This document shows, one piece after another, positions 2,217 to 17,528 of a stretch of 17,897 bases of DNA (positions are counted from its first letter, which is position 1; each line of letters begins with the position of its first letter). Source of the stretch: Chlamydiota bacterium (GTDB taxonomy: Bacteria; Auribacterota; Tritonobacteria; UBA1439); assembly GCA_037133055.1 (NCBI GenBank), contig JBAXOY010000062.1, forward strand, positions 1 to 17,897. Direction: 5' to 3'. A program made the position numbers and the translations under genes. The notes below the pieces were generated by a model that did not search any database, was not told the DNA's origin, and was given only the letters and a program-made list of their open reading frames with translations.

Positions 2217-2228
2217 AGGGAGGTGAAG

Positions 2229-2927
2229 ATGAACAAGGCAGGGGTGGAGATGGTGCTGATCGAGCCGGGGGAGTTCATGATGGGGAGCCCGGAGACGGAG
2301 AAGGAGAGATCGAGCGACGAAGGCCCCTGGCACAAGGTGAAGATCACGAAGCCGTATTATCTCGGTAAATACGAAGTGACACAGGCGCAGTACGAGGCAG
2401 TGATGGGAAATAACCCGAGCTATTTCAAGGGAGAGAATAACCCCGTGGAGAGAGTTTCCTGGAACGATGCGAAGGCATTCTGCGGCAAAATCGGATGCCG
2501 TCTGCCGACGGAGGCGGAGTGGGAGTACGCCTGCCGGGCGGGGACGACGACGCCGTTCTCATTTGGGGAGACCATCTCGACGGATCAGGCGAACTACGAC
2601 GGTAACTACACCGTGATCAAGGGGGTGTATGGGGTGTATCGGCAAAAGACTATGCCCGTGGGGAGTTTTCAGCCGAATGCCTGGGGTCTGTACGACATGC
2701 ACGGGAACGTGTGGGAGTGGTGCGAGGATGTGTGTCACGACAGCTACGCGGGTGCGCCGACGGATGGGAGCGCATGGACTACGGGGGGGCTCTATCAGGA
2801 GTGGGGAATCCTTCGCGGGGGCTCCTGGGTCAGCCCTCCCCATCTCCTGCGTTCGGCGAACCGCGACGGGATCGTTCCCGGGCTCAGTTACGACAGGCCC
2901 GGGTTTCGTGCCGCCTGGACTCCATAA
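2229..2927 (+). CDS. FGE-sulfatase (SUMF1/CLec-fold) domain protein; probable DGR target gene
   Basis: PGEFMMGS, KYEVTQAQY, PVERVSWNDA, RLPTEAEWEYACRAG, PNAWGLYDMHGNVWEWC, RGGSW...RSANR...GFR; GGAGGT RBS before ATG 2229 (GTG 2223 is an alternative); immediately upstream of avd. Confidence 0.92.
   Translation: MNKAGVEMVLIEPGEFMMGSPETEKERSSDEGPWHKVKITKPYYLGKYEVTQAQYEAVMGNNPSYFKGENNPVERVSWNDAKAFCGKIGCRLPTEAEWEYACRAGTTTPFSFGETISTDQANYDGNYTVIKGVYGVYRQKTMPVGSFQPNAWGLYDMHGNVWEWCEDVCHDSYAGAPTDGSAWTTGGLYQEWGILRGGSWVSPPHLLRSANRDGIVPGLSYDRPGFRAAWTP
2802..2927 (+). other. Putative DGR variable region (VR) and IMH at the 3' end of the target gene
   Basis: RGGSW-VSPPHL-LRSANR-DGIVPGLSYDRP-GFR occupies the canonical CLec VR position; codons at the usual Asn positions are nearly all NNY; boundaries approximate because no TR is available. 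Confidence 0.6.
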
Positions 2928-2930
2928 AAG

Positions 2931-2972
2931 TTACCCTTTGCTCTTTTACGCTTTTACCCTTTGCGGTTTTTT
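2931..2972 (+). repeat. Pyrimidine-rich ~8-nt-period imperfect tandem repeat after the VR
   Basis: TTACCCTT TGCTCTTT TACGCTTT TACCCTTT GCGGTTTT; TTACCCTTTGC occurs at 2931-2941 and 2954-2964. Confidence 0.7.
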
Positions 2973-2987
2973 GAAAGGCACGAGCAC

Positions 2988-3344
2988 ATGAGCATTGAAA
3001 AACCGGGCGGCGTGATGGAGATCGAGGTCATCACGCGGATGTACGACTTCCTGCTCTGGCTCCTGCCCCACGTGGAGAAGTTCCCGCGTTCGCACAAGTT
3101 CACGATGGGCGACAGGATCGAGAACGCGGGTCTTGATGTGCTGGATCTTCTCCTCGATGCGAAATACAGGTCGCTGAAAGTCGATGTGCTCAGGAGAGCG
3201 AACCTGAAACTCGAGCAGTTGCGGTTTCTTCTCAGGTTGAGCAAGGACCTGCGCATGCTGAACGTGAAATCCTACCTTCACGGGTGCCGCCTTTTGAACG
3301 AGGTGGGAAAACAGGTCGGCGGGTGGATAAAGAGCGCGAAATGA
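2988..3344 (+). CDS. avd: DGR accessory variability determinant Avd (four-helix bundle)
   Basis: YDFLLWLLPHVEKFPRSHKFTMGDRI ... ANLKLEQLRFLLRLSKDL ... EVGKQVGGWIK is the characteristic bAvd-like pattern; basic 118-aa protein (start could be 3015). Confidence 0.9.
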   Translation: MSIEKPGGVMEIEVITRMYDFLLWLLPHVEKFPRSHKFTMGDRIENAGLDVLDLLLDAKYRSLKVDVLRRANLKLEQLRFLLRLSKDLRMLNVKSYLHGCRLLNEVGKQVGGWIKSAK

Positions 3345-3412
3345 AAAGATTCGGCGGTCTCTTCGACAAGGTCATCAGTTTCAGTTTTTTGATTTTTTTA
3401 CGACATGCGTAA
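3341..3412 (+). pseudogene. N-terminal remnant of a DGR reverse transcriptase
   Basis: ATGA overlap with the avd stop; reads MKRFGGLFDKVISF, resembling the typical DGR RT start (MKR-x-GNLF-x-KI-x-SFENL), then runs into a T-rich tract and TAA at 3410-3412. Confidence 0.7.
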
Positions 3413-3435
3413 GGCGGAGTAAAGACCTCCATATC

Positions 3436-3462
3436 CTCTGTGGGCTCTGTGCCCTCTGTGGC
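3436..3462. repeat. 9-nt-period repeat (CTCTGTGNN x3)
   Basis: CTCTGTG at 3436, 3445 and 3454. Confidence 0.75.
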
Positions 3463-3495
3463 GACAATGTACGTTTCATTTTAAGGGATAACACA

Positions 3496-4842
3496 ATGAT
3501 CGTGATGAAGTTCGGCGGCACCTCGGTGGGGGGCGCCGGGGCGATGCGGCGGGTGCGCCGGATCGTGGCGGACCGCCTTGCGCTCCGCCCCGTCGTGGTG
3601 GTGTCGGCGGTGGGCGGGATCACCAACCTTCTCCTCGAGAACGCCCAGCGCTCGCGCGAGCGCTCCCGCGAGGGGATACGGCTCCTCGAGAAGTTCTGCG
3701 CCGTCCACGACGGGATTATCCGCGAGCTCGACCTGCCGGCGGGGCTGGCGGAGGAGGGGTTCGTCCAGCTCAGGGAGCCGCTCCCCGGCGTCTACTATTT
3801 GGGCGACCTGACCTCGCGGGCGCTCGCCTATGTCGCAAGCTTCGGCGAGCGGGTTTCGGCGAAGATCGTGAGCGCCCTGTTCAACGCGGCGTGGATCCCC
3901 AGCCGCCCCTATACGGGCGCGGAGGCGGGGATCGTCACCATCGACGAGCACGGCAACGCGAGCCCGCTCCCGTCGACCTACGCCTTGATACGGAGGCGGC
4001 TCAGGGGCGTGAAGAAGCTCCCTGTGGTGACCGGCTTCATCGCCAGGAACGCGCGCGGCGAGATCACCACGCTCGGGCGCGGCGGGAGCGATTTCACCGC
4101 CGCGATCATCGGGCGCGGGGTGGGCGCGCGGGAGATACAGATCTGGACCGACGTGACCGGCATCATGACCGCCGACCCGCGCGTGGTAAAAGCGGCGCGG
4201 ACGATCCCGAAGCTCGGCTTCACCGAGGCGGCCGAGCTCGCCTACTTCGGGGCGAAGGTGCTGCACCCCCGGACGATCGAGCCGGCGGTCGAAAAGGACA
4301 TACCGGTCAGGATCCTCAACACCTTCGATCCGGACGCCGCGGGGTCGCTCGTGGTGCGCCAGGCGCCGCGGCCGCGGAACGCGATCCGCGCCATCGCCTG
4401 CAAGAAGCGCAACACCCTCTTCACCCTGCGCTCCACCCGGATGCTCGACGCGCACGGCTACCTCGCCCGGATTTTCGAGGTGTTCAAGCACTACGCCGTT
4501 CCCGTGGACCTGATCGCCACCTCGGAGGTCAGCGTCTCCGTGACGGTGGACGCGGTCGCCGCGCCGAAGCTCAAGGGGATCATCGCGGACCTCGGGCGGA
4601 TCTGCACCGCCCGCATCTACGAGAACAGGGCCATCGTCTGCCTCGTCGGGGAGGGGATCGGCGACACCCCGAACATCGCGGGGAAGATATTCAGCGCCGT
4701 CGGGCGGGCGGGGGTGAACGTCGAGATGATCTCGCAGGCGAGCTCGGCCCTGAACATAAGCTTTCTCGTGAAGGACGAGGACGCCGACGGGACGGTGCGG
4801 CTCCTGCACCGCGAGTTTTTGGAGAAGGGGCGGGGGGGATGA
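3496..4842 (+). CDS. lysC: Aspartate kinase (monofunctional, two C-terminal ACT domains)
   Basis: MKFGGTSV, VVVSA, SFGE, TTLGRGGSD, IWTDVTGIMTADPR, EAAELAYFGAKVLHP, VDLIATSEVSVS, NVEMISQ. Confidence 0.96.
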   Translation: MIVMKFGGTSVGGAGAMRRVRRIVADRLALRPVVVVSAVGGITNLLLENAQRSRERSREGIRLLEKFCAVHDGIIRELDLPAGLAEEGFVQLREPLPGVYYLGDLTSRALAYVASFGERVSAKIVSALFNAAWIPSRPYTGAEAGIVTIDEHGNASPLPSTYALIRRRLRGVKKLPVVTGFIARNARGEITTLGRGGSDFTAAIIGRGVGAREIQIWTDVTGIMTADPRVVKAARTIPKLGFTEAAELAYFGAKVLHPRTIEPAVEKDIPVRILNTFDPDAAGSLVVRQAPRPRNAIRAIACKKRNTLFTLRSTRMLDAHGYLARIFEVFKHYAVPVDLIATSEVSVSVTVDAVAAPKLKGIIADLGRICTARIYENRAIVCLVGEGIGDTPNIAGKIFSAVGRAGVNVEMISQASSALNISFLVKDEDADGTVRLLHREFLEKGRGG

Positions 4843-5457: not shown

Positions 5458-6030
5458 ATGAGTAATCGATTGTGGTGGATGAGCACGTTTGTCCTGTGGT
5501 TGATATGGCCGCTCTCCCTTCCCGCTGCAACAGGTGTGCCCGGTGCAACTTCTCACGCATGGAAACCTGCATGGCTCTCCGCCATTGAAGTCCCCGCCGA
5601 TACCGGGGAGTTGCGTGTGAATGAGGAGAACGGGAAAATAACTTCGGTGGAGGTCGAGGGTTCGCCGCTCAAAGGAGAGTTCACACGCCTTAACGGTTTC
5701 CATGCGATCACGCTAAAACGTCAATCCGGCGAGAAATTTACCTGCAGTGGCTGGATATATATAGGTATTTCAGATCCTCTCGGAACGCTGGATTGGGCTT
5801 TTGCAATAGATGACGTGACGAGTATGCCGAAGTGGGTTAAGGATGCGGCTCGCGAATGTAACAAGGCTGATGGCGGAAACATGTTCCTCCAGAAAGGAAG
5901 GGACTTTCACTCCGGCGGTGACGCGAAGCCATTCACCGGCGAGGAGTTCAGCTCGGGATGGCGATTGTTTCTTGTAGGGAAGATGGTTAAGGTCAAAGGG
6001 CGCTGGGAGTTCCAACTCACACCGCGATAG
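5458..6030 (+). CDS. Hypothetical exported protein
   Basis: 190-aa ORF with GGAGG RBS and a hydrophobic N-terminal signal-like segment; visibly AT-richer codon usage than the flanks; no family recognised. Confidence 0.6.
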   Translation: MSNRLWWMSTFVLWLIWPLSLPAATGVPGATSHAWKPAWLSAIEVPADTGELRVNEENGKITSVEVEGSPLKGEFTRLNGFHAITLKRQSGEKFTCSGWIYIGISDPLGTLDWAFAIDDVTSMPKWVKDAARECNKADGGNMFLQKGRDFHSGGDAKPFTGEEFSSGWRLFLVGKMVKVKGRWEFQLTPR

Positions 6031-6064
6031 GATGATGAACGGGGATGGGAATCGCATCCTGTAA

Positions 6065-6073
6065 TGGTATACT
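6065..6073 (+). promoter_or_regulatory. Extended -10 promoter (TGnTATACT) of hicBA
   Basis: TGGTATACT about 20 nt upstream of the hicB ATG, followed by a GGAGGTGAGG RBS. Confidence 0.6.
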
Positions 6074-6093
6074 AGTAATCGGAGGTGAGGATC

Positions 6094-6300
6094 ATGAGGG
6101 AAGTCATGATTTATCGCGGCGAAGACGGGTTTTGGGTGGCCGAATGCCCCAGCCTTCCCGGCTGTATCAGCCAGGGATCGACAAAAGAAGAGACGATTGC
6201 AAACATTAAAGAGGCGATCGAAGGGTATGTCGGGGCATTGAAAGAGGATAACCTGCCCATTCCTCCTGAAAATTTCGAGGCATTCGTGGTAGCGGTATGA
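6094..6300 (+). CDS. hicB: HicB family antitoxin (short form, no DNA-binding domain)
   Basis: EDGFWVAECPSLPGCISQGSTKEETIANIKEAIEGY; overlaps hicA (ATGA); GTG 6085 is an alternative start. Confidence 0.92.
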   Translation: MREVMIYRGEDGFWVAECPSLPGCISQGSTKEETIANIKEAIEGYVGALKEDNLPIPPENFEAFVVAV

Positions 6301-6518
6301 CCCAGCTCCCCAGGATCTCCGGCGCCGAGTGCGTCAAGGCTCTGTGTAAAGCGGGGTTTTATTTCAAGCGTCAGCACGGAAGCCACATTATCCTTCGCAG
6401 AGATAATCCTTTCGCTCAACTCGTTGTGCCGAATCATAAAGAACTGGACCGGGGAACACTCAGGGCAATAATCCGTCAGGCCGATCTGTCTCTCGATCAA
6501 TTTATCCGGCTGCTGTAA
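6297..6518 (+). CDS. hicA: HicA family toxin (dsRBD-like mRNA interferase)
   Basis: KAL-x-KAGF...RQHGSH, VVPNHKEL..GTLRAIIRQA. Confidence 0.93.
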   Translation: MTQLPRISGAECVKALCKAGFYFKRQHGSHIILRRDNPFAQLVVPNHKELDRGTLRAIIRQADLSLDQFIRLL

Positions 6519-6549
6519 CCGTTTCTCAAGATGAAACATCTCTTACACC

Positions 6550-6589
6550 CACACACGCCGATACGCCCATGCGCCCACACGCCGACACA
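6550..6589. repeat. 8-nt-period imperfect tandem repeat
   Basis: CACACACG CCGATACG CCCATGCG CCCACACG CCGACACA. Confidence 0.7.
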
Positions 6590-6646
6590 TGCGGCATGCA
6601 CCCGTGATGCGGAATCCAGAATCACATTCGTAAAGGACCAGGAACC

Positions 6647-8164
6647 ATGCAGGGAATATACTGGGGCGGACTGTGGTGGGTGATATTTTTCTACGCGGTC
6701 GTATTCTGGGTGGGAGTCTATTACTCGAAAAGGCGGGACACAGGCACCACCGCCGACCTTCTCCTCGCCGGAAGGAACATGCCGCTCTGGCTCGCGTTGG
6801 TCACCATGACCGCGACATGGGTCTGCGGCGGGTACCTCAACGGCACCGCGGAAAATATTTACAAGAACGGAATCACGTGGGGGGCGCAGGGGGGGCTCTG
6901 CTATTCCATGAGCCTTATCATCGGAGGGCTGTTTTTCGCACGCATCATGAGGCGCCTCGAGTTCACCACCCTCCTTGACCCTTTTGAGAAACGCTTTGGC
7001 AAGGGAGCGGCGGCGGTCCTGTTTTTCCCCGCGCTTGCCGGCGAGATATTCTGGAGCGCGGCCATCCTCCTTGCCCTCGGGACGACGTTCGGGACGATCC
7101 TGAACGTGGGCCTGACCACGTCGATCATCATATCCTCGGGGGTGGTCATCGCGTACACGGTCGTCGGCGGGCTCTGGTCGGTGGCGTACACGGACGTCGT
7201 GCAGCTCGCCTTCATCTTCGTCGGCCTGATCGCCGCGATCCCGTTCGCGGTCGGCCACGTGGGGGGCTGGGCGGGAATGGTCGAACGCTACCACGCCATG
7301 GGCGGATCGTTCACCTCGTTCTTCCCCCCCGTCCGCAACCTTTCCCACAACCCGTCCTGGACGCTGCCCCAGGTGCTCAACTGGTGGGATTGGTCGTTCC
7401 TGCTCATGCTCGGCGGGATACCGTGGAACGTCTATTTCCAGAAAGTGCTCGCCGTTCCGAATGAGAAGATCGCGTCGAGGTTCTCGATCTACGCCGGGTT
7501 CCTGTGCGCGCTCGCGGCGGTGCCGCCGCTCATCATCGGCATCATCGGGAGCATCTTCCCGTGGAAGACGCTCAACCTCGGCATGGAGTACCCCGCGATG
7601 GTCCTCCCGTACGTGCTCCGCTACCTGACGCCCTACTGGGTCGGCGTGCTCGGCCTCGGCGCGGTCGCGGCGGCCGTGATGTCGTCGGTGGACTCCTCGT
7701 TCCTCTCGGCCTCGACGATGTTCACGTGGAACTGGTACTGGAGGATCATCAACCCGGGGTGCAGCGAGCGCTCGCTGCGGGTCGTGCTCAGGATCTCCAC
7801 CGTCGCCGTCGGCGTCGCCGCGACGGTGATCGCCCTGAAGATCAGGAGCGTGCAGGCGCTCTGGTACCTGTGCAGCGACTTCGTCTACGTCATCCTCTTT
7901 CCGCAGCTCGTGATGGCGCTCTTCTCGAAGAGCGCGAACCGGGCGGGCTCGATCGCGGGGCTCGCCGTCTCGTTCGTCCTCAGGTTCGGCGGGGGGGACC
8001 CTCTCCTCCACATCCCGCAGTTCATCCCCTATACGTGGTGGGACAAGAACGCGGGCACGCTTTTTCCATTCAAGACGATCGCGATGCTGGGCGGGCTCTT
8101 GACCATTTTCCTCGTCTCGAGGGCGACCGCCCGCCTCTGCCCCCCGCGGCCTCTCGAAGGCTAA
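6647..8164 (+). CDS. Sodium:solute symporter, CHT1/SLC5A7-like probable choline transporter
   Basis: About 13 TM segments; TMTATWVCGGYLNGTAE, GEIFW, YTVVGGLWSVAYTDVVQL, LMLGGIPW..YFQ.VL, AAVMSSVDSSFLSAS, LWYLCSDFVYVILFPQL closely follow recalled CHT1 motifs. Confidence 0.88.
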   Translation: MQGIYWGGLWWVIFFYAVVFWVGVYYSKRRDTGTTADLLLAGRNMPLWLALVTMTATWVCGGYLNGTAENIYKNGITWGAQGGLCYSMSLIIGGLFFARIMRRLEFTTLLDPFEKRFGKGAAAVLFFPALAGEIFWSAAILLALGTTFGTILNVGLTTSIIISSGVVIAYTVVGGLWSVAYTDVVQLAFIFVGLIAAIPFAVGHVGGWAGMVERYHAMGGSFTSFFPPVRNLSHNPSWTLPQVLNWWDWSFLLMLGGIPWNVYFQKVLAVPNEKIASRFSIYAGFLCALAAVPPLIIGIIGSIFPWKTLNLGMEYPAMVLPYVLRYLTPYWVGVLGLGAVAAAVMSSVDSSFLSASTMFTWNWYWRIINPGCSERSLRVVLRISTVAVGVAATVIALKIRSVQALWYLCSDFVYVILFPQLVMALFSKSANRAGSIAGLAVSFVLRFGGGDPLLHIPQFIPYTWWDKNAGTLFPFKTIAMLGGLLTIFLVSRATARLCPPRPLEG

Positions 8165-8165
8165 G

Positions 8166-8335
8166 TGGGGTCAGGCCTTAACTATTAACTACGCTATCCA
8201 TCGCCGGAAATGGTCATGCCCGGTATGACAATCCGGCCTCTCGCAGGGCTCGTCGTAGTTGATAGTGCGTGTCTCGTGTCTGACCGCGACGATGTGGCCG
8301 GCGAGGGTGTAGTTAATAGTTAAGGTCTGACCCCA
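8166..8335. mobile_element. 170-bp MITE/REPIN-like element with 27-bp terminal inverted repeats
   Basis: TGGGGTCAGGCCTTAACTATTAACTAC (8166-8192) vs GTAGTTAATAGTTAAGGTCTGACCCCA (8309-8335), 26/27 complementary; no convincing coding capacity. Confidence 0.65.
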
Positions 8336-9033
8336 GAACGGGCGGAGATCCCGCCTCCGCGGAGATTGATCCAGAACGAGGCGAGGAAGTAGTAGCAGGG
8401 ATAGGCGAGGGAGAGGCGGACGAGAAGGGGGTCGGCCCGTTTCGCGGTGAAGACCAGCCAGAGGATCAGCGCCGCCCAGGCCATGGTCAGGGGCGCGGTG
8501 AATGCCCGCAGAGGTTTCGTCTTCAACGGGTCGATATACTTGATGGGGACGAAGACCATCAGGGAGAATCCGAGGACGACCGCGAGGTTGAACGCCCTCC
8601 CGCAGTGGAGCAGGAACAGGTAGAAGACCACGAAGTTCCAGTAGCTGGGGAACCCCGTGAAAAAACCGTCGTCCGTCTTCGCGCGCTCCTGGCAGAACCC
8701 GTAGGCGCTCGCAACGATGGGGATGAGCGCCCAGGCCCACTGCCGTTCGGGGAGCATCTCCGCGAAGGCGAGGATGAACGCGGGGACGAGGACGAAGTTG
8801 AGGAAGTCGACGAGGTCGTCGAGCCTCCTCCCGTTGAACTCCGGGAGGACCCGGGCGGTGCGGAAGCGGCGGGCGAGCGGGCCGTCGGTGGCGTCGATGA
8901 TCGTGGAGAGCGCGAGGAGGAGGAACGCCTGGCGCGGGCTCTCGTCGAGCCATGCCCGCACGGCGAAGAAGCCGGTCGCGAGGCCGAGCGCAGTGTAGGC
9001 CTGGACGCCCCAGGCGATCAGTTTCGGGTTCAT
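8320..9033 (-). CDS. pcs: Phosphatidylcholine synthase (CDP-alcohol phosphatidyltransferase family)
   Basis: AWGVQAYTALG N-terminus, D-x-x-D-G-x-x-A-R...G-x-x-L-D-x-x-x-D motif, ASAYGFC..KT.DGFFTGFPSYWN, VFVPIKY; Pcs-type rather than PgsA/PssA-type. Confidence 0.82.
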   Translation of the reverse strand: MNPKLIAWGVQAYTALGLATGFFAVRAWLDESPRQAFLLLALSTIIDATDGPLARRFRTARVLPEFNGRRLDDLVDFLNFVLVPAFILAFAEMLPERQWAWALIPIVASAYGFCQERAKTDDGFFTGFPSYWNFVVFYLFLLHCGRAFNLAVVLGFSLMVFVPIKYIDPLKTKPLRAFTAPLTMAWAALILWLVFTAKRADPLLVRLSLAYPCYYFLASFWINLRGGGISARSGVRP

Positions 9034-9040
9034 CGCGGGC

Positions 9041-9049
9041 ACTATACCA
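9041..9049 (-). promoter_or_regulatory. Extended -10 (TGnTATAGT) for a leaderless pcs transcript
   Basis: TGGTATAGT on the minus strand, 7 nt before ATG 9033, with no SD. Confidence 0.55.
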
Positions 9050-9053
9050 AACG

Positions 9054-9191
9054 AAATCCCAAATCCCAAATCCCAAATCCCAACAAAAGATATGCGCTAT
9101 CGGGTTCTCACCACGAAATAAATGCACCGGCGTCACGTTTTTAGCCTGCGCGGGTGTCAACATTTTCCCCTTGTTTTGGGATTTGGGATTT
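9054..9191. repeat. Inverted pair of heptamer arrays: (AAATCCC)x4 at 9054-9081 and (GGGATTT)x2 at 9178-9191
   Basis: Exact heptamer copies read directly; the two arrays are mutually complementary. Confidence 0.85.
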
Positions 9192-9209
9192 TGTCCGGGC
9201 GGTGGCTCA

Positions 9210-9238
9210 TTGAAGTGCCCTCCGGGCTGTCGTATAAT
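9210..9238 (+). promoter_or_regulatory. sigma70 promoter of trxB (TTGAAG-17-TATAAT)
   Basis: Perfect -10 with a 17-nt spacer; 11 nt to ATG 9250. Confidence 0.75.
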
Positions 9239-9249
9239 GGAAGGCGTCC

Positions 9250-10176
9250 ATGACCGACCATCTGCACGACTTGATCATCATCGGCGGGGGCCCCGCGGGG
9301 CTTGCCGCGGGAATCTACGCGGCGAGGGACGGGCTCGACTGCATCCTCCTCGAAAGCCGTACCCCCGGCGGACAGCTCGCGAATACTGCGGGAATCGCCA
9401 ACTACCCGGGGTTCCCGGGAGAGGTCTCCGGTTTCGAACTCGCCGAAAAGATGCGGGAGCAGGCGGTCGCCTTCGGACTGAAGATCGAGGAGGGAGAGGC
9501 GCGCGGCCTCGCCCGCGACGGCGCGCGGATCAGGGTCGAGTGCGCCGCCGGCGCGCACGAGGCGCGGGCGGTCGTCGTCGCCACCGGCGCGACCCGGAGA
9601 AGGCTGGGCGTGCCGGGCGAGGACCGGCTCGGCGGGCGCGGGGTCTCCTACTGCGGGACCTGCGACGGCCCCCTGTTTCGGGACATGCGCGTCGTGGTGG
9701 CGGGCGGGGGGGACACGGCGGTCGAGGAGGCGGTCTTCATCGCGCGCTTCGCGTCGAGGGTGACGATCGTCCACCGGAGAGACCGGCTCCGGGCGAGCCC
9801 GGGGCTGCAGCGCCGGGTATTCGCCGAGAAGAAGATCGATTTCTGCTGGGGCTCGGTTATCCGCGAGATACGGGGGGAGGGACGGGTGTCCGGCGTCCTG
9901 GTCGGGGATGCGCGCGGCGGCGGCGTCCGAGAGATCCCCTGCGAGGGGGTGTTCATATTCGTCGGGAGCACGCCCAACACCGCGTTCCTGAAGGGGGCGC
10001 TCGCGCTCGACGAGGCAGGCTGCGTGGTCGCCGATATCACGATGGCGACCTCGCTGCCCGGGGTGTTTGCCGCGGGCGACGCGCGCCGGGACTCGGTGCG
10101 GCAGATCGCCGCCGCGGTCGGCGACGGGGTCACGGCCGTCATACAGGCGGAGCGCTATCTCGGCGCCCGCGGCTGA
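9250..10176 (+). CDS. trxB: Thioredoxin-disulfide reductase
   Basis: IIGGGPAGLAA, NYPGF, ATGA, GRGVSYCGTCDG (CxxC), GGGDTAVEEA, HRRD, TSLPGVFAAGD, RQIAAAVGDG. Confidence 0.95.
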   Translation: MTDHLHDLIIIGGGPAGLAAGIYAARDGLDCILLESRTPGGQLANTAGIANYPGFPGEVSGFELAEKMREQAVAFGLKIEEGEARGLARDGARIRVECAAGAHEARAVVVATGATRRRLGVPGEDRLGGRGVSYCGTCDGPLFRDMRVVVAGGGDTAVEEAVFIARFASRVTIVHRRDRLRASPGLQRRVFAEKKIDFCWGSVIREIRGEGRVSGVLVGDARGGGVREIPCEGVFIFVGSTPNTAFLKGALALDEAGCVVADITMATSLPGVFAAGDARRDSVRQIAAAVGDGVTAVIQAERYLGARG

Positions 10177-10298
10177 GGAGCGGTGGTTTCACCCCCCACC
10201 CCGACCCTAAGGGGGAAGGGGGATACTGTGCGGGCCCCCCCAAGAGTGACCCAGTACGTAAGGTGATGGATTATGCTGGCGCACGCGCCTCCGGGATG

Positions 10299-10307
10299 TG
10301 CTATAGT
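10299..10307 (+). promoter_or_regulatory. Extended -10 (TGnTATAGT) upstream of the comEA-like gene
   Basis: TGCTATAGT about 60 nt upstream of the GAGGAGGA RBS and ATG 10369. Confidence 0.5.
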
Positions 10308-10368
10308 GTTTTGTCGTTGTATGAGCGTGGCGTGCTGATCCGGTTGCGAGGTCGAGAGGAGGACGGGC

Positions 10369-10869
10369 ATGAAGAGTGGAGTGGTATGCGCGTGCGCGTT
10401 GTGCATCCTCGCCGTGTGCGGGGTGCTGCTGCCGGCGGGCCCCGTGAATGCGTCGCCGGCGCGGGCGGATGTCGCGCTGCTCGGGGACAATGGGTTTTCG
10501 GCCCCGATCATCGGCAGCGGATCCGCGATGGATACCGCGCCCATGATGCTCGCAAAAAAGAAAAGCAAGAAGAAGAAGAAGAAGGGCGACGATGACGTTG
10601 CGGGCGACAAAAGCGGCGCGGTGCGCGTCGATCCCAACACCGCGAAGCTGAGCGAACTGAAGGTGCTCCCCCTCGTCGACGAGCAGACCGCGCAGGCAAT
10701 CATCGCCCATCGCCCCTACAAATCCGCCGAGGACCTCATCAACGTCCCCGAGGTGGGGCCGAGCAAGTACCGGATATTCAAGCACCTCATCGAGATCAAA
10801 CAGCCCGAGGTGACGTTGGCCGAGGTATCGACGGCGACGGGAGCGGAAGTGATCGAGAATGCGCCCTGA
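10369..10869 (+). CDS. ComEA-family helix-hairpin-helix DNA-binding protein
   Basis: Signal/TM segment, poly-Lys linker, VDPNTA...EL..LP.V....AQAII..RPYKS.EDL..VP.VGP tandem HhH domain. Confidence 0.85.
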   Translation: MKSGVVCACALCILAVCGVLLPAGPVNASPARADVALLGDNGFSAPIIGSGSAMDTAPMMLAKKKSKKKKKKGDDDVAGDKSGAVRVDPNTAKLSELKVLPLVDEQTAQAIIAHRPYKSAEDLINVPEVGPSKYRIFKHLIEIKQPEVTLAEVSTATGAEVIENAP

Positions 10870-10884
10870 GGTTCTCCCTCAGGG
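10864..10884. terminator. Hairpin between the convergent comEA-like and LysM genes
   Basis: CCCTGAGG-TTCTC-CCTCAGGG, an 8-bp stem overlapping the stop codon; no U tract. Confidence 0.4.
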
Positions 10885-10920
10885 GTGGGCGCCCGCGGGG
10901 TCTCGTACACACGCGCGCAT

Positions 10921-11532
10921 TCAACGGGCGGGCCGGGGGATTTTGAGCTTCCGGCCCGCCTGAATCATATCCGGGTCCGTGATCCCGTTCGCCTGCATGA
11001 TCTCCCGCGCACGCACGCCGTGGTTCCGCGCAATGTCGGCGAGCGTGTCCCCCGGGCGGACCGTGTACTCTCCGCCCGCAGGCGACGCGCCTTCCCGGAT
11101 GCCCGACAGCGCCCCCCGGAGTTGCGCGTTCTCCGTCTTCACCACTTCGATGACCGCCTGCATCTTCCTGTCCGCCGTCGTCCGCTCCGCCACCGCCTCC
11201 TTCTCGATCGCCGCGAGCCGCCCCTCCAGCGCGTCAAGCCGCTCGCCGAGGCGGGCGGCGCGCTCCTGGAGCGGGCGGGCGAAGGCGTCGTCCGAGTAGC
11301 GGTGCTCAAGCTCCTCCTGGGATGCCCGGAGCGCGCGGAGGTCCTGCTGCAGGTTCTTCAGTTCCTCGGAGAGCGAGGCCTGCCGGGCAATGAGCGCGGT
11401 CTGCGGCGACGCCGCGCCGCCGCCCCCGAGTTCCGCGCAGCCGCAGAGCGCCGCGCAGAACGCGATGACCGCCGCGCTCGAAACGCGCCGAGATCCATTG
11501 CTCGGACAGGCTCCCCGATGCGGTGCGCGCAT
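10921..11532 (-). CDS. LysM-domain lipoprotein with N-terminal coiled coil
   Basis: Lipobox-like LCGC, long heptad-rich region, C-terminal YTVRPGDTLADIARNHGV....IMQANGI.DPD.IQAGRKLKIP LysM; start uncertain. Confidence 0.88.
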   Translation of the reverse strand: MRAPHRGACPSNGSRRVSSAAVIAFCAALCGCAELGGGGAASPQTALIARQASLSEELKNLQQDLRALRASQEELEHRYSDDAFARPLQERAARLGERLDALEGRLAAIEKEAVAERTTADRKMQAVIEVVKTENAQLRGALSGIREGASPAGGEYTVRPGDTLADIARNHGVRAREIMQANGITDPDMIQAGRKLKIPRPAR

Positions 11533-11556
11533 GACAGCCCTTCGGGAAAACGCACA

Positions 11557-11588
11557 GCAAAAGGCCCGGGCGGTGAAGCCCGGGCCTT
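11557..11588 (-). terminator. Intrinsic terminator/attenuator downstream of pal
   Basis: AAGGCCCGGGC-6 nt-GCCCGGGCCTT stem, ending in TTTT on the minus strand. Confidence 0.65.
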
Positions 11589-11612
11589 CGCGCGATCCGA
11601 CTGTGGCGCCGC

Positions 11613-12173
11613 TCAGGCCTTCGGCGCCTGCTGCGTGAGGCCGAGGAGGAAATGCCCGCGGCGATTTTTCGCCCAGCACGTCTCCTTCTGCTCCGTGCAA
11701 AGGGGGCGCTCCTCGCCGTAGCTGATCGTGTAGATGCGCTCGGGCGCGATGCCGAGGTTGGCGAGGTAGCTGCGGATGCTCAACGCGCGGCGCTCGCCGA
11801 GCGCCAGGTTATACTCGTTCGAGCCGCGGTCGTCGCAGTGTCCCTCGACCTTGATCGTCAGCGTGGGATGCTCCTTCATGTAGCCCGCGATCCCCTCGAT
11901 GATCGGGCGCTCGCTCCCCCGGATGTCGGATTTGTTGTAGTCGAAATGCACGTCGACGAAGATCTCCCTGGCCGCGGGATCGGGATAATTCTCCGGCTCC
12001 GCGAACGGCCCCTCGGGGTTCTCGGTCAGCGGAATGCCGCCCGGCCCCACCCCCTCGTCGCCGAACATGCCCTTGCCGGGCGCGGGTATGGTGACCTTCG
12101 CCTTCGGGGTACAGCCCGCGACGGCGACGACCATCGCGGCCGCTATGGCGGAAAACAGCAACCACTTCTTCAT
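11613..12173 (-). CDS. pal: Peptidoglycan-associated lipoprotein Pal (OmpA_C domain)
   Basis: Lipobox VAGC; VHFDYNKSDI, VEGHCDDRGSNEYNLALGERRA, TISYGEERP, WAKNRR. Confidence 0.95.
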   Translation of the reverse strand: MKKWLLFSAIAAAMVVAVAGCTPKAKVTIPAPGKGMFGDEGVGPGGIPLTENPEGPFAEPENYPDPAAREIFVDVHFDYNKSDIRGSERPIIEGIAGYMKEHPTLTIKVEGHCDDRGSNEYNLALGERRALSIRSYLANLGIAPERIYTISYGEERPLCTEQKETCWAKNRRGHFLLGLTQQAPKA

Positions 12174-12227
12174 CCTCAACCCTCCCTCACTGTAGGTGGT
12201 GTGATCATCCCTCACGTTACGCGGCAC

Positions 12228-12256
12228 ATACTACACCAAATCGCAAAGCCCCTCAA
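12228..12256 (-). promoter_or_regulatory. Putative pal promoter (TTGAGG-17-TAGTAT)
   Basis: Read on the minus strand in the intergenic gap upstream of pal. Confidence 0.4.
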
Positions 12257-12276
12257 GCATTTTCGTCTGCACTCCT

Positions 12277-13338
12277 TTAGTACTTGTAGGTGCTGCCCCC
12301 GATGAACTCCCTGAGCAGCGACGTCCCCGGCACGCACGAGTCGTCCTCCCTGACCTCGATCTCGTCGAGCATCTTCTGGACGCGCATCGCCCGGAGGAAC
12401 GCGTCCTGGCGCTTCGGATTGCCCCTGTACTCCTCGATCGCCTTCGCGAAGTACGGGAACATGAACTTCTTGTGGATCGGGAGTTCGAACGGAAGCGAGC
12501 CGTTCAGCACGAAGTCCACGCTCGTGATGAAGGGGACGATGTGGCGCATCTCGCTCCTCCGGACGTAGTGCCAGTGGCCGATCGTCCTCACGGGGTCGTA
12601 GCTCCGGTGCCAGGAGTCGCGCACCATCCGCCGCAGCAGGCGGGTGTCGGTCCAGCGGATCCAGTTTCCCTCGTTGTCCTTGATCTGGGTCAGGGTCTCG
12701 ATGTACAGCCTGAACTTCAATTCCCGCGGCACGCTGCGGGTCATCTTCTCGTAGAGCCCGTGCAGGCTGTCGATGAGGAGGACCTGGTTTTTCTCCAGCC
12801 GGAGCGGGTCGGTCTCGGCCTCGCGCTTTCCCGTCTTGAAGTTGTAGCGGGGGATCTGGACGGTCTTGTAGTCGATGAGGGCGGCGAGGTGATCGTTGAT
12901 GAGCTGCAGGTCCAGCGCCTCGGGGACCTCGAAGTCGTAGTCCCCGAACTCGTCCTTCGGGTGCATCTCGAGGTTGAAGAAGTAGTTGTCCAGGTTGATG
13001 GGGACGATGCTCATCCCCGCCTGCTTGAGGCGCTCGTTCAGTTTGATCGTCGTGGTGGTCTTGCCCGAGGACGACGGGCCCGCGATGATGGCGATCCGCA
13101 CCCTGTCCCGGTGCGCGATGATCTCATCGGCGGCCCGCGTGACGTTTCCGTGGTATTGCTCGTCCCCCTCCCGCACGAGGTCCGGGAAGGACCCGTCGAG
13201 GACCCTCCTGTTCAAGCCCGCGACGGTGTCGACCCCGTGGGCGATGTTCCAGTCCAGGACGTTCTGGATGACCACCCTTGGGATACTCTGCCTTTCGCAG
13301 CGTTCGAGGCCGTTATTGTCAGGGGCGATACCCTTCAT
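12277..13338 (-). CDS. Uridine kinase/phosphoribulokinase-like P-loop kinase
   Basis: IAGPSSSGKTT Walker A, LDNYF, YDFEVPEALD, PRYNFKTGKR, RLLRRMVRD; GAGGAG RBS before ATG 13338. Confidence 0.8.
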   Translation of the reverse strand: MKGIAPDNNGLERCERQSIPRVVIQNVLDWNIAHGVDTVAGLNRRVLDGSFPDLVREGDEQYHGNVTRAADEIIAHRDRVRIAIIAGPSSSGKTTTTIKLNERLKQAGMSIVPINLDNYFFNLEMHPKDEFGDYDFEVPEALDLQLINDHLAALIDYKTVQIPRYNFKTGKREAETDPLRLEKNQVLLIDSLHGLYEKMTRSVPRELKFRLYIETLTQIKDNEGNWIRWTDTRLLRRMVRDSWHRSYDPVRTIGHWHYVRRSEMRHIVPFITSVDFVLNGSLPFELPIHKKFMFPYFAKAIEEYRGNPKRQDAFLRAMRVQKMLDEIEVREDDSCVPGTSLLREFIGGSTYKY

Positions 13339-13417
13339 TGCAGCATTCTCCTCGGCCGGGGTTTTCCCGGGTGGCCGGGCGGGGCCCGGCATCAGCCCGG
13401 ACAGCCATGTGGGGAAT

Positions 13418-13445
13418 AGTGTAGCCGTGCCCTCTTGTTTGTCAA
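13418..13445 (-). promoter_or_regulatory. sigma70 promoter (TTGACA-16-TACACT)
   Basis: Perfect -35 on the minus strand upstream of the kinase gene. Confidence 0.65.
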
Positions 13446-13497
13446 TAGGTTTTTCGGGGCGGAGCGGGGCGGGGAGTCCGGACAGACCCCTCCGGCC

Positions 13498-14238
13498 TCA
13501 GGGTTTTTCAGTCGCCCATATTCCAAGGCCGAGATTCTTCGCGTACCGCTGGAGGGAATCGAAAGCCTCCCGGTACCGGTGGACGGCGGGGAGGGGGGCG
13601 GCGCGCGCCCATCCCCGCTCGATCATCTCGCCGTTTAAAAGTTTGCCATCGGAGACGACGTAGGCCTGCGGCTGCCCCCGGTTCTCGGGGCTCTGGGGGC
13701 CCGGGAAGAGGAATACATCCCGGCCCTTCACCTGTTCGGAGAGATAGCGCGCCGCCTTGCGCGTGAGCGCTTTGTCCGCCGATTCGGGAGGGGGCGCAAG
13801 GCCGAGGAGGCGCACCGCGCCTCCGCCCTTCAGATCGAGGGTGACGGCGTCGCGCGCCCCCGTGCAGGTGACGCGTATGGGATTTTTCTTCGGCACTTCG
13901 AGACAGGGTATCGGGGCGGCCTTCCTCCCCCTGGGAAGCAGCATCCTGGCGAGGGGGAAGAAGCCGGACTGGCCCTTGGCCCGGGGCGCCGTCCCGCGGG
14001 GCATCAGGTAGTAGAGCATCCCGTCCCCGGTGGTGATCCGCGACACCTCGTCGTAGGGGTAATAGCGGCCGGGGGACGTTTCCTTCTCGCGGAGGAGCAC
14101 GCCCTTGTCGTAGGTGATGACGATCTGTCCTTCGATCTTCTTCCCGTTCTTGAGGAGCACGATTTCTGCGCGGAGGGAAGGGGCGGCGAGGATCGCCAGT
14201 GGGACCAGGAGGCACAACGCCGGTGTGCGGGCTTTCAT
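13498..14238 (-). CDS. Exported thermonuclease (SNase)-like protein with degenerate active site
   Basis: Signal peptide; N-terminal IVLLKNGKKIEGQI module; C-terminal VRLLGL, AYV...LLNGEMIERGWA, AKNLGLGIW SNase pattern. Confidence 0.75.
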   Translation of the reverse strand: MKARTPALCLLVPLAILAAPSLRAEIVLLKNGKKIEGQIVITYDKGVLLREKETSPGRYYPYDEVSRITTGDGMLYYLMPRGTAPRAKGQSGFFPLARMLLPRGRKAAPIPCLEVPKKNPIRVTCTGARDAVTLDLKGGGAVRLLGLAPPPESADKALTRKAARYLSEQVKGRDVFLFPGPQSPENRGQPQAYVVSDGKLLNGEMIERGWARAAPLPAVHRYREAFDSLQRYAKNLGLGIWATEKP

Positions 14239-14248
14239 GCGCGGCACA

Positions 14249-14331
14249 AGTATACCCCAGCCGGTTGGCGGCGTCCAGCCCCCCCCGGCCCCCCGATTCC
14301 GATTGCCCTTTCGTTCCCGGACGATTAGACT
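14249..14331. promoter_or_regulatory. Divergent promoter pair
   Basis: Minus: TGGACG-17-TATACT (-10 at 14254-14249). Plus: TTGCCC (14303-14308)-17-TAGACT (14326-14331). Confidence 0.5.
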
Positions 14332-14372
14332 ATGGCCCTGCATGCGGTGCGGATCCCCGGGGGGAAGGCGCG

Positions 14373-14957
14373 ATGAAGAGGATGCGGGCGGCCCATAACC
14401 CGAAAAGGCTCCTGGTGCTCTGTCTGCTGGTCGGATCGGCGCGCGCGGCGTGCGCCGGCGACGTCGCGTTCAGAAAGCTGTGCGGCGGCGATGACGCCGT
14501 CTACGGCGTGAAGAAGACCTCTGCGGCCCCAGAACTCGCGCTCGCCCGCGACGGTGACGAGATGCGCCGCATCTGGGCGGAGGACGTCACGGGGGCCTAC
14601 CGGGACTCGAACGGCATGCCCGCGGTCGACTGGAAGAGCGAATTCGTCGTGGCCGTCTTCATCGGGGCGCGCCCCTCCGCGGGGTACGCGGCGCGGATCG
14701 AAGGGGTGGCGCTGAAGGGGAAGGTGCTCGAGGTCACGGTGCGGGAGAGCGCCCCGTCCCCTGCGCCCGCCGGGGCAGCGCGCGCCGCCTCTCCGTACGC
14801 GATGGCGGTCTGTTCGCGCGCGGGAGTCCCCCTTGCGGATATCCTCATGCTCAGGCTCGCCGGCGGAGACGGCAGGGTCCTCGTCGAACGTCCCGCCTGG
14901 TCGTACCGGATGATGGATTCTTCCCCCGGGGCCGCCGGGGCGAAGGGCGCGCGGTGA
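14373..14957 (+). CDS. Exported protein with PrcB C-terminal domain
   Basis: Signal peptide; PAVDW..EFVVAVFIG.RPSAGY...I..V......L.V.V.E..P......SPY motif. Confidence 0.75.
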   Translation: MKRMRAAHNPKRLLVLCLLVGSARAACAGDVAFRKLCGGDDAVYGVKKTSAAPELALARDGDEMRRIWAEDVTGAYRDSNGMPAVDWKSEFVVAVFIGARPSAGYAARIEGVALKGKVLEVTVRESAPSPAPAGAARAASPYAMAVCSRAGVPLADILMLRLAGGDGRVLVERPAWSYRMMDSSPGAAGAKGAR

Positions 14958-16873
14958 GAGCCATGCCGGTTTCTCGCCTCCGGACCGCCGCAGCCTTGGC
15001 GGCCCTCGCCTCCTGCGCCGGCTGCGCGACGGTGTCCGTGGGCAGGATCCCGAGCCAGGAAGGGGTGTATCCCGCCTCGACCCGCCCCGACGCGCCGCTC
15101 GTGCTCGCCATCCCGGGGCTGAGAATCCCGACCATCCCCGTGACGCAGGAGCAGCACTTCGGGCACCTGGTGGAGATGCTCGCCGCGGAGGGTATCCCGT
15201 GCCGCATTCTCCCCTACGATACGAATGAGAACCCCCTCTCTCCCGACGCGGCGCTCATTTCCCCGAATCTTGCCATCGCGTGGACCCGCGTCGGCCCGGC
15301 GGCCGTCCACGAGCTCCAGCTCGAAAACGAGCGGCGGGCCGCCCTCGGATTGCCCCCCGCGCAAAGGGTCGTGTTTTTCGGGTACAGCCAGGGGGCGGTG
15401 ATCATGGAGCAGCTCGCGAGCCGCATCTTCTACTCGTTCAAGAATAATTACGACGACATGGCAAAACATTTCGGCGTGGAGTGGACCGCCCTGCGCAACG
15501 ATCCCGAGTTCCTCTATTTCATGAACGCGCTCGAGGACTTCCTCGTGCTGAAGAATATCAAGGTCCAGAGGGAAAAGGGGCTCAGGCGCGACCCCGACTT
15601 CAAGTACGTGTACCGCAGGGCGGAGTTGAAAGCGACCCGGCAGTTCGACGAGTTGATCCAATACCTCAACGATCCGACGGTTAAATACCCCGGCGTGGCG
15701 CGATTCGAAGAGCCCGAGACGCCGAAATACCCGAAGCGGTACCGCGCGGTGAAATTGTGCGCGGAGTACGAGAAGCACTGCTCGCTCGAACAGCGCGAGC
15801 GCATCAAGAGCTTCTTCATCGATTACGCCGAGTACCGCCATTTCCTCGACGTGCAGCCCGCGTTTATCGCGGCGGCGGGCTCATTCTTCGGTTCGCCCCG
15901 CGCGAGCGCGAGTTACGCCCTCTTCAGACGGTTCCCATTTCTGAAACTTTTCGTGCGGCGGGAGCTTAACCAGATCAGGCAGACCGAGCTCGGCGCGCCC
16001 CAGCACTGGGAGAATATCGAGACCCTCGTCCGCCTGAACAGGGACGAACGGTACCCGATCGACCCCGACAACACGCTCTTCATCGTGGGGGCGAACGGGG
16101 GAAGGGGCGACGGTCTTGTCGACCAGTCGAGCGCCCACCTCGCCGACCATTCCTTCCAGCGGGTACGGGTCATGAGGGCGGCACGGGGGAGGGAGAAGGT
16201 GGAGACGGAGGTGATCGAGCGGGACCGGCTCCCGGACCTGATCGTGGTGCCCCTCCGCCTGATGCACTTTCCGGAAACGATGATGTGGGGCATGGGCGGG
16301 CGGCGCTACGGCGCGGCGTACATGGAGGAGGGCAACCCCGCCTGGCCCTATCTGCTCAGCTTCGTCCGATGCAACGCGACGGGGATAGGAAGCAGCCTCG
16401 CCCGGGGAGAGAGGAACCTCGGCCAGTGCCTGCTGTCGCTCGCCCCCCCCGCGGTCCGCGACAGGGCGAGCGAACCGGTGAGCCTCAGGCAGTTCATGCT
16501 CGAGCTCTCCCTGCCCCCCGACGCTTGGAAGGGATCGAGCGTCAGCCGCACCGGGCGCTCGTGGAACGTGCGGATCGACAGGCTGTATCACAACGCCGAG
16601 ACGCGCTCCTGGGTCTGGACGGGGCATTTCGAGGGGAGGGGGCAGGAGATGAATCCGTTTGGCCCGGAGTCGGTCGAGGGGGCCGTCGACCTTGAGCTGC
16701 GCCTGTCCCGAGGGGAGAAGCTGCCCCTCTCCTGCACCGTCTACCCCGGGTGCAGCAGCTTCATCAAACTCGAAACCGCGGGAACCGTGTCAGCCCCGTC
16801 TTCTTCCCGTTTTTCGCCGAATAGCTCCTCTCGGACGTATGGGACCTATACCGCCAAAACACCGTCAGACTGA
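14954..16873 (+). CDS. Large lipoprotein with alpha/beta-hydrolase features
   Basis: GTGA overlap with the upstream gene (ATG 14963 alternative); lipobox-like CAGC; VLAIPGL, VFFGYSQGA nucleophile elbow, FFGSP, DGLV...SA, later HF. Confidence 0.7.
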   Translation: MRAMPVSRLRTAAALAALASCAGCATVSVGRIPSQEGVYPASTRPDAPLVLAIPGLRIPTIPVTQEQHFGHLVEMLAAEGIPCRILPYDTNENPLSPDAALISPNLAIAWTRVGPAAVHELQLENERRAALGLPPAQRVVFFGYSQGAVIMEQLASRIFYSFKNNYDDMAKHFGVEWTALRNDPEFLYFMNALEDFLVLKNIKVQREKGLRRDPDFKYVYRRAELKATRQFDELIQYLNDPTVKYPGVARFEEPETPKYPKRYRAVKLCAEYEKHCSLEQRERIKSFFIDYAEYRHFLDVQPAFIAAAGSFFGSPRASASYALFRRFPFLKLFVRRELNQIRQTELGAPQHWENIETLVRLNRDERYPIDPDNTLFIVGANGGRGDGLVDQSSAHLADHSFQRVRVMRAARGREKVETEVIERDRLPDLIVVPLRLMHFPETMMWGMGGRRYGAAYMEEGNPAWPYLLSFVRCNATGIGSSLARGERNLGQCLLSLAPPAVRDRASEPVSLRQFMLELSLPPDAWKGSSVSRTGRSWNVRIDRLYHNAETRSWVWTGHFEGRGQEMNPFGPESVEGAVDLELRLSRGEKLPLSCTVYPGCSSFIKLETAGTVSAPSSSRFSPNSSSRTYGTYTAKTPSD

Positions 16874-16909
16874 CATGAGCCCTCTCCGCTTCACCATCCG
16901 CCGCCGCTG

Positions 16910-16918
16910 TGCTAGACT
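16910..16918 (+). promoter_or_regulatory. Extended -10 (TGnTAGACT)
   Basis: TGCTAGACT upstream of the GGAGG RBS and ATG 16944. Confidence 0.55.
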
Positions 16919-16943
16919 ATCCCCGTCACCGGAGGGACTACCG

Positions 16944-17528
16944 ATGAGACTGCCGCCCGTCCTTGTTCTTGCGCTTGTCTGCGCGGGGTGTGTCGTGCCG
17001 CAGCGGAAGTTTGACGAGCTCAACAGCGAGAAGCTTCTGATCGAGGCCAAGTGCGCCGAGGTCACGCGCGAGAAGGAGAAACTCGCCGCGGAGAAGGCCT
17101 TGCTTGACGCCGTGATCGCCCGGGGCGCGCGCGATGTCGCGAAGTTTGAGCAGCGGGTGAAGGACCTCCGCGAATCGAACGTCGAGCTGATGCGGGAGCT
17201 CGGGGAGTCGCGGAAGAAGATTACCGAATACGAGAAAAAGGCCGGGGAGCTCGACGCCGCCCGGTCCAGGGCGGCGGAGGAGAGGAAGTCCATCGAGCGG
17301 AAGTGCGAGCGCGTCGAGAATGAGCGCGTCACCGTCCAGCGCCAGTACCGCGAGCTCCTCGATCAGCACAACCGGCTGCAGCGCCGCCTCGCCGAGGCGG
17401 AGCCGGTGCGGGCCGCCTCGCCCTCGCCGCCTCCCGGGACCGCCGCGCCGGCGGGCGGGGGCGCGGGCGGGGACCGCGGCGCCTCGCATGGCGGCCAGGG
17501 GCTGGACGTCTCCGGCACCGACGGCTGA
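16944..17528 (+). CDS. Coiled-coil lipoprotein, hypothetical
   Basis: RBS GGAGGG; MRLPPVLVLALVCAGC lipobox; ~130-aa coiled coil followed by a Pro/Ala/Gly tail. Confidence 0.75.
   Translation: MRLPPVLVLALVCAGCVVPQRKFDELNSEKLLIEAKCAEVTREKEKLAAEKALLDAVIARGARDVAKFEQRVKDLRESNVELMRELGESRKKITEYEKKAGELDAARSRAAEERKSIERKCERVENERVTVQRQYRELLDQHNRLQRRLAEAEPVRAASPSPPPGTAAPAGGGAGGDRGASHGGQGLDVSGTDG

Follow-up and report, generated by a model that had tools for sequence, protein, structure and literature searches.

Phosphatidylcholine synthase (Pcs) and its pathway are described from Sinorhizobium, Agrobacterium, Pseudomonas and Legionella, and in rhizobia the ChoXWV ABC importer feeds the enzyme, according to the accessible parts of PMC3972451 and PMC7867332. 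Choline transporters of the CHT type belong to the family of sodium:solute symporters (SSS). Besides human CHT1 (SLC5A7), they include sfCHT of Salimicrobium flavidum (PDB 9RWS/9RWT), for which choline transport dependent on Na+ and sensitive to hemicholinium-3 was published in 2026 (PMC13220886). The initial annotation of the DNA described here treated the substrate of bacterial CHT1 homologues as an open question, but choline transport had thus already been shown for one of them. The available text of the same paper calls the physiological roles of prokaryotic CHT proteins unclear and suggests osmoadaptation or nutrition; that main text, as available, contains none of the terms "genomic", "operon" or "phylogen", and phosphatidylcholine (PC) appears in a reference only. 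Bacillus licheniformis and B. (Priestia) megaterium, too, have an SSS gene described within their gbsAB clusters (available text of PMC6207618). Here we describe a contig of 17,897 nt (the window) from a 3.0-Mb genome that is 92% complete. It carries a CHT1/sfCHT-type symporter gene whose 505 amino acid product is a predicted Na+/choline importer (6647–8164, plus strand), and beside it a gene (pcs) for a 237 amino acid Pcs-type CDP-alcohol phosphotransferase (8320–9033, minus strand). We consider it likely that Na+-driven choline uptake by the transporter feeds PC synthesis by Pcs, because the transporter has the conserved residues, the two genes co-occur in their family, a second lineage carries them in an operon-like order, and no other recognized choline importers or sinks were found.

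The transporter is a member of the SSS/SLC5 family by Pfam SSF (112.5 bits against a cut-off of 22.8); TIGR00813 gave 152.6 bits, under its cut-off of 184. A phmmer search of the PDB returned 14 hits, headed by sfCHT with 533 bits (E = 1e-158, residues 4–503) and human CHT1 with 354 bits (E = 2e-104); other SSS proteins reached at most 70 bits, the next E value being 2e-18. Assignment to the proline or pantothenate symporters is not supported, as the PutP and PanF models gave 71 and 60 bits, far under their cut-offs of 515 and 328. The family is wide in bacteria, with at least 2,698 near-length homologues among 8,000 scored.

Residue equivalences were read by eye from the phmmer alignments, using the cage and Na+-site residues named in the available text for CHT1 (PMC11589582) and sfCHT (PMC13220886). 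The choline cage is kept throughout: W58, Y63, Y86, W136, W260 and W406 correspond to human W62, Y67, Y91, W141, W254 and W406, and W58/Y86/W136/W260/W406 align with sfCHT W99/Y126/W176/W298/W445. As in human CHT1, the Na2 ligands (A56, V59, A343, S346 and S347) and the Na3 ligands (D183, D349 and S350) are present, and T57 and Q186 of the sfCHT site are there as well, so that the Na+ site named for sfCHT (A97/T98/V100/Q226) is shared. Along the exit path, sfCHT R84 and Q303 are matched by R43 and Q265, whereas R304 is replaced by K266 and S307 by A269; the former position is Arg in 118 of 119 homologues, and the latter is Ala in 48 of them. Chloride in CHT1 is coordinated by backbone nitrogens and W141 (available text of PMC11589582), and the equivalent of the W141 contact is retained, but the chloride loop reads VCGGY (Cys60) instead of VGGGY. 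All five motifs on which the initial annotation relied are present (TATW, 55–58; CYS, 85–87; EIFW, 133–136; GIPW, 257–260; LWY, 405–407). Its description of them as nearly identical to CHT1 was too strong: they are close only, with CYS for GYS and IPWN (Asn261) for IPWQ in addition to the altered chloride loop. The protein also differs from sfCHT in having Asn for Q299 and Cys for G101, a second core helix longer by one residue, and no counterpart of the N-terminal ~40 residues; it comes from a freshwater organism and has pcs as its neighbor. Unlike human CHT1, it has no long C-terminal tail and probably serves lipid rather than acetylcholine synthesis.

In a tree whose root was chosen on six eukaryote-type rows (rows were labelled by motif and length, and one of the six, inspected by eye, is almost the same as the human chain), the transporter falls inside a 57-row bacterial group (support 99/98), apart from the eukaryote-type rows. 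The same split was obtained when the tree was rooted on another SSS. Judged from these alignments, the transporter belongs to a CHT family that is widespread in bacteria and is not an animal import, because two trees place it among bacterial homologues; the earlier label of an animal-like protein is therefore misleading, the closest match being sfCHT rather than human CHT1. It could still be argued that the gene came from an animal or protist and that the bacterium is a host-associated scavenger mimicking eukaryotic membranes: the likeness to human CHT1 is strong, and PC often matters in bacteria–host interactions (PMC3972451, in the part available). However, the greater likeness to sfCHT, the position within the bacterial group, and the lack of any pointer to a host in what was examined make such an origin very improbable indeed.

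The enzyme carries the motif DATDGPLAR-x8-P-x3-G-x3-D-x3-D at residues 47–76, which agrees exactly with the Pcs form of the CDP-alcohol motif, DG-x2-AR-x8-P-x3-G-x3-D-x3-D (available text of PMC7867332). The five NCBIfam Pcs models, NF045884–NF045888, gave 129–164 bits. PssA (TIGR00473) gave 36.6 bits against a cut-off of 107, and the type II PssA motif, AR-x5-S/T-x2-G-x3-DS-x2-D (available text of PMC3972451), is absent; assignment as a phosphatidylserine synthase is thus not supported, in keeping with the first assignment as Pcs-type. It aligns along its length, at 30–37% identity, with the Pcs sequences annotated in Sinorhizobium, Pseudomonas and Legionella adelaidensis and shares with known Pcs the 12-residue-spacer motif with Pro and a KT-D-x-x-F-x-GFP-x-x-WN segment. 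Pcs is described as having eight transmembrane segments (PMC3972451, available text); the predicted structure (predicted local distance difference test score, pLDDT, 93.6) likewise has eight helices of at least 11 residues, and a crude hydropathy scan found four helices only. A sequence search of the PDB gave no hit. We prefer the ATG at 9033 over the TTG at 9069 as the start because the family homologues start at the same place. The genome encodes four other CDP-alcohol transferases, including PssA-like and PgsA-like proteins; three have a readable motif, each with an 8-residue spacer, and the gene adjoining psd on contig C56 carries the type II PssA motif. The PssA-like, PgsA-like and a third such protein matched the enzyme with blastp E values of 0.006 or worse. 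The pcs gene of the window adjoins an SSS symporter gene; there was no annotated SSS within 2.5 kb in any of three annotated reference pcs regions.

The two open reading frames (ORFs) are convergent, as first described, with a stop-to-stop gap of 155 bp, and the junction is spanned without mismatch by contigs from two other runs of two studies (7882–8490 and 8044–8341). Neighboring positions would have a chance of roughly 1 in 1,000 by our own estimate, and we take adjacency to exceed chance because each gene has a single match in the 3.0-Mb genome and the pairing recurs elsewhere. Distribution was surveyed with single-protein queries in 79 genomes of the phylum, many of them incomplete, of which eight belong to the family. 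Co-occurrence, which had been put forward as a check, was borne out: pcs was found in all eight family genomes and the transporter in seven, neither was found in the 71 others, and the two genes are directly convergent in six of the eight.

A second lineage came to light through a 776 amino acid protein, P0242, the single hit when longer proteins were searched, in which likeness to CHT breaks after about residue 410 and a non-homologous stretch leads into an intact Pcs. From the protein sequence, this was read as a frameshift across two tandem genes and not as a real CHT–Pcs fusion; no second protein matching both families occurred among 391 proteins. (A 472 amino acid protein, P0274, has a Pcs-like part joined to a HAD hydrolase domain, by either fusion or read-through.) A metagenome scan was led by P0243, a clean relative of P0242, and the best 80 of 474 confirmed stretches were used. 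These loci, from soil and sediment metagenomes and without taxonomy, are mutually related and represent one clade picked by likeness to one query; their transporters are 46–51% identical to that of the window. In 48 of the 80 a pcs gene follows the transporter gene in the same orientation, within 300 bp in 43, and it is never upstream or on the opposite strand; where at least 300 bp of downstream DNA was available, 46 of 67 loci carry it. The Pcs motif was present in all 39 Pcs frames recovered from the 40 loci tried. Among the loci without pcs, no common alternative neighbor was seen in the 24 inspected.

The two pcs-linked clades thus hold the same two families, and their transporters have in common an extra residue (GxQ[AG]G) and the W-N signature, but the genes are convergent here and co-oriented there, and the window transporter keeps its CHT1-like sites. 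In the tandem clade, all 80 transporters scored have Asp in the chloride loop (VDGGY), 79 have Ser for the Na3 Asp, and 78 have Phe for Y91; these substitutions may point to a change in how chloride or sodium is coupled. In the transporter tree the two clades come together with weak support (85/49, or 93/94 with P0253; 33 of the 80 loci were used). The Pcs tree, for which 20 of the 39 sequences were used and the bootstrap had not settled, separates them, but joining them is compatible with an approximately unbiased test (p = 0.34). One might go further and propose that the GxQ[AG]G and W-N transporters are a CHT subfamily dedicated to lipid synthesis, forming with pcs an old two-gene module across phyla, in which this freshwater family kept full CHT1-like Na+ sites, but a fixed Asp took the place of the chloride site and of one Na+ site in the tandem branch. 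This is possible, but we regard it as doubtful.

The metabolic setting of the genome is consistent with PC as the destination of choline. Neither BCCT nor OpuAC importers were matched in the genome (LicB was not searched for), and OpuAC was matched in none of the eight family genomes. There was likewise no match to the choline sinks CutC, GMC/BetA-type, choline kinase, LicD or MttB, nor to GbsR, in the genome, and CutC was matched in none of the eight family genomes; each of these family searches did give a match in one or more control genomes (for CutC, a match below its cut-off). One fragmentary BCCT match and one fragmentary MttB match occurred in genome G001 only. A Na+ gradient is plausible in this bacterium because it has a Na+-type V-ATPase rotor, the K subunit carrying L63/T66/Q67/Y70/Q117/E146 spaced like the Enterococcus hirae Na+ ligands (available text of PMC2359735), and an RnfD/NqrB gene. 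Such a gradient, maintained by the V-ATPase and Rnf, would drive high-affinity choline uptake through the cage W58/Y86/W136/W260/W406, and choline would leave for the cytoplasm by the R43/Q265/K266 path. On the cytoplasmic side, Pcs would use a divalent metal to convert choline and CDP-diacylglycerol into PC and cytidine monophosphate. Transporter and pcs would be transcribed separately at this locus, the distant clade having the tandem pair, and together they would make up a choline-salvage route to membrane lipid.

A number of observations weigh against this supply route and are best considered together. The gene identities, binding residues, co-occurrence and adjacency are read directly from the DNA, and the function of both proteins is of course predicted. 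The enzyme passes none of the curated Pcs cut-offs (300–440) and lies outside the five named genus-level subfamilies. However, annotated Pcs tested on the models of other genera gave 134–240 bits (S. meliloti) and 119–173 bits (L. adelaidensis), and the shortfall is expected because true Pcs score 119–240 bits on foreign models. The nearest solved fold is phosphatidylserine synthase; the fold search, which cannot distinguish the head group, found other CDP-alcohol transferases with no Pcs among the matches listed. Near its N terminus the enzyme has Gln11 in place of a conserved His (residue 20 of the S. meliloti protein as recorded). The His is kept in all three reference Pcs and in all but one of the 39 tandem-linked Pcs, and Gln occupies the position in five of the eight family genomes and, among 120 near homologues, in 19; we did not treat this His as defining Pcs, its essentiality not having been found in the literature searched. 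Finally, an OlsG/PmtA-like N-methyltransferase (contig C30, 2820–3380; FGPGTA in its S-adenosylmethionine motif) might yield PC without choline. A protein search found this gene in 22 of the 79 phylum genomes, including seven of the eight in the family.

The pair might therefore handle a related amino alcohol (ethanolamine or mono- or dimethylethanolamine), with the separate N-methyltransferase completing the head group. The changed His, the solved fold and the distribution of the methyltransferase in the family would fit, as would Cys60, Asn261 and Lys266 in the transporter, and some Pcs enzymes accept methylethanolamines. Nevertheless, the trimethylammonium cage is complete, orthologues at the same locus carry either His or Gln, which suggests a tolerated change, and the methyltransferase fits OlsG (107 bits) better than PmtA (54 bits) and occurs in 15 phylum genomes that have neither transporter nor pcs. 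We judge this explanation improbable.

Other difficulties concern the locus. The genes are convergent, and hence there is no operon here, although the proposal that a CHT1-type symporter supplies Pcs is supported in its core. Synteny across the family extends over the whole block, DUF4139 through udk, and the family adjacency thus counts as a single inherited event; pcs–trxB adjacency is better conserved than that of transporter and pcs. In genome G003, 11 kb separate transporter and pcs, and G005, although 95% complete, has pcs but no transporter, with just 16 bp between pcs and the end of the ITPase gene; G005 also has no BCCT or OpuAC match. Given the tail-to-tail orientation and the family-wide synteny, local adjacency by itself is weak evidence. 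In the tandem clade, 21 of the 67 informative loci show no pcs in the available DNA. The absences listed above rest on a 92%-complete genome, which also encodes two generic dehydrogenases, one for alcohols (Fe type) and one for aldehydes, that are both below cut-off and show 38% identity to GbsB and GbsA, respectively.

Accordingly, adjacency could be no more than inherited synteny and choline could serve mainly another use, as glycine betaine or as a carbon or nitrogen source. The high synteny in the family, the loss of the transporter in G005, its separation in G003 and the Gbs-like paralogues all lean that way, and so does the P. megaterium SSS. This is a CHT-family protein 51% identical to the window transporter, and its gene (record positions 7812–9524) is divergent from betB(gbsA), an Fe-alcohol dehydrogenase gene and a regulator; it is the one genomic context looked at in the sfCHT-like branch. 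Like the window gene it lies beside a choline-using pathway, but the sink there is glycine betaine, and the residues aligned to the helix-8 Na+ ligands S346/S347/D349/S350 are Ala. The CHT family therefore sits beside two different choline sinks, PC and betaine. In the window genome, however, the Gbs-like dehydrogenases are unlinked (on other contigs), below cut-off and score best on other models, and CutC, GMC and MttB are without a match. Transporter and pcs are confined to the same family within the phylum, another lineage has the operon-like tandem, and the habitat is freshwater, where osmoprotection should be less important. Some other principal use of choline thus seems quite unlikely, and the supply of choline to Pcs remains the reading we prefer.

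The convergent gap is filled by an inverted repeat (8166–8335) resembling a repetitive extragenic palindrome (REP), with 27-bp arms, 96% complementary and 116 nt apart, that folds into a hairpin of -99 kcal/mol. Its right arm encodes the final codons and stop of pcs (GVRP-stop). Copies of the arm were detected by blastn on eight other contigs, and family genome G006 has a sister variant at the same junction, where both genes finish in such an arm (GVKP-stop). The hairpin is a possible two-way terminator, perhaps ending both messages. A promoter-like site for pcs (9041–9069, minus strand; TTGGGA-17-TATAGT with TG) ends 8 nt before the ATG, so that an mRNA from it would be leaderless or nearly so; the scan, which scores consensus match only, gave three sites compared with 1.1 ± 1.0 in shuffled sequence. 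Inverted arrays of the heptamer AAATCCC lie at 9051–9089 and 9170–9194, between pcs and trxB, and are common to contigs of many other sequences in the metagenome runs.

Beyond the module, trxB (thioredoxin reductase; 9250–10176, plus strand; TIGR01292, 346.6 bits, above cut-off) is divergent from pcs and adjoins it in all six relatives with that side assembled. Between the ITPase gene and the transporter lies an insert of lower GC content (5458–6518, plus strand), also outside the module, consisting of a 190 amino acid, secreted-looking ORF without Pfam or NCBIfam match and hicB–hicA (Pfam HicB and HicA). It had no tblastn match in the regions retrieved from relatives, in which the transporter follows immediately after the ITPase gene, and is known in this genome only. 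The G003 insert (6461–17193) encodes large secreted or surface proteins, including a 1,412 amino acid ORF and a collagen-like repeat protein. Between DUF4139 and aspK, an FGE-sulfatase-fold gene is followed by a bAvd-like gene (2223–3344), neither matched in the fetched regions of relatives. Such parts are typical of a diversity-generating retroelement; no second copy of 2701–3500 that could be its template was found in the genome, and the reverse transcriptase was not searched for. A 639 amino acid lipoprotein-like ORF (14954–16873) has no Pfam match and contains a lipase-like GYSQG motif.

The five sequencing runs that contained at least half of the sampled words were freshwater or lake-water metagenomes from four studies, one of them possibly the source run; no RNA datasets were listed among the runs containing the sequence, and none of 119 candidate viral contigs was confirmed. 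The nearest titled relative is a metagenome-assembled genome of Ca. Auribacterota, with a transporter 87% identical (one locus from 61 candidates in a genome-collection scan); this single title, together with "Aureabacteria" labels carried by homologues, suggests the lineage. Members of Ca. Auribacterota are inferred to be fermentative anaerobes in the available text of PMC9324843.

Both protein families, and choline transport by a bacterial CHT, were already known; what is new is a Pcs pathway that would receive its choline from a CHT-type symporter. A link between a CHT-type SSS and pcs was found in no paper of the literature searched, whose coverage excludes most subscription journals. An SSS route would be added to the importers known to feed Pcs, and lipid synthesis would become a third, testable role for prokaryotic CHT, beside osmoadaptation and nutrition. 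The natural variants of the chloride loop (Gly, Cys and Asp) and of Na3 form a series for asking whether chloride dependence is a later adaptation, a question raised in the available text of PMC13220886. Were there indeed a subfamily dedicated to lipid synthesis, feeding PC synthesis would be a main, and possibly the ancestral, job of the CHT1 family, predating its use in nerves. The recurrence of the pair in other bacteria suggests that such transporters likely import choline for membranes and not only for salt resistance, and from the loci one would expect PC made from choline in an uncultured freshwater lineage that is probably anaerobic and is related to Ca. Auribacterota.

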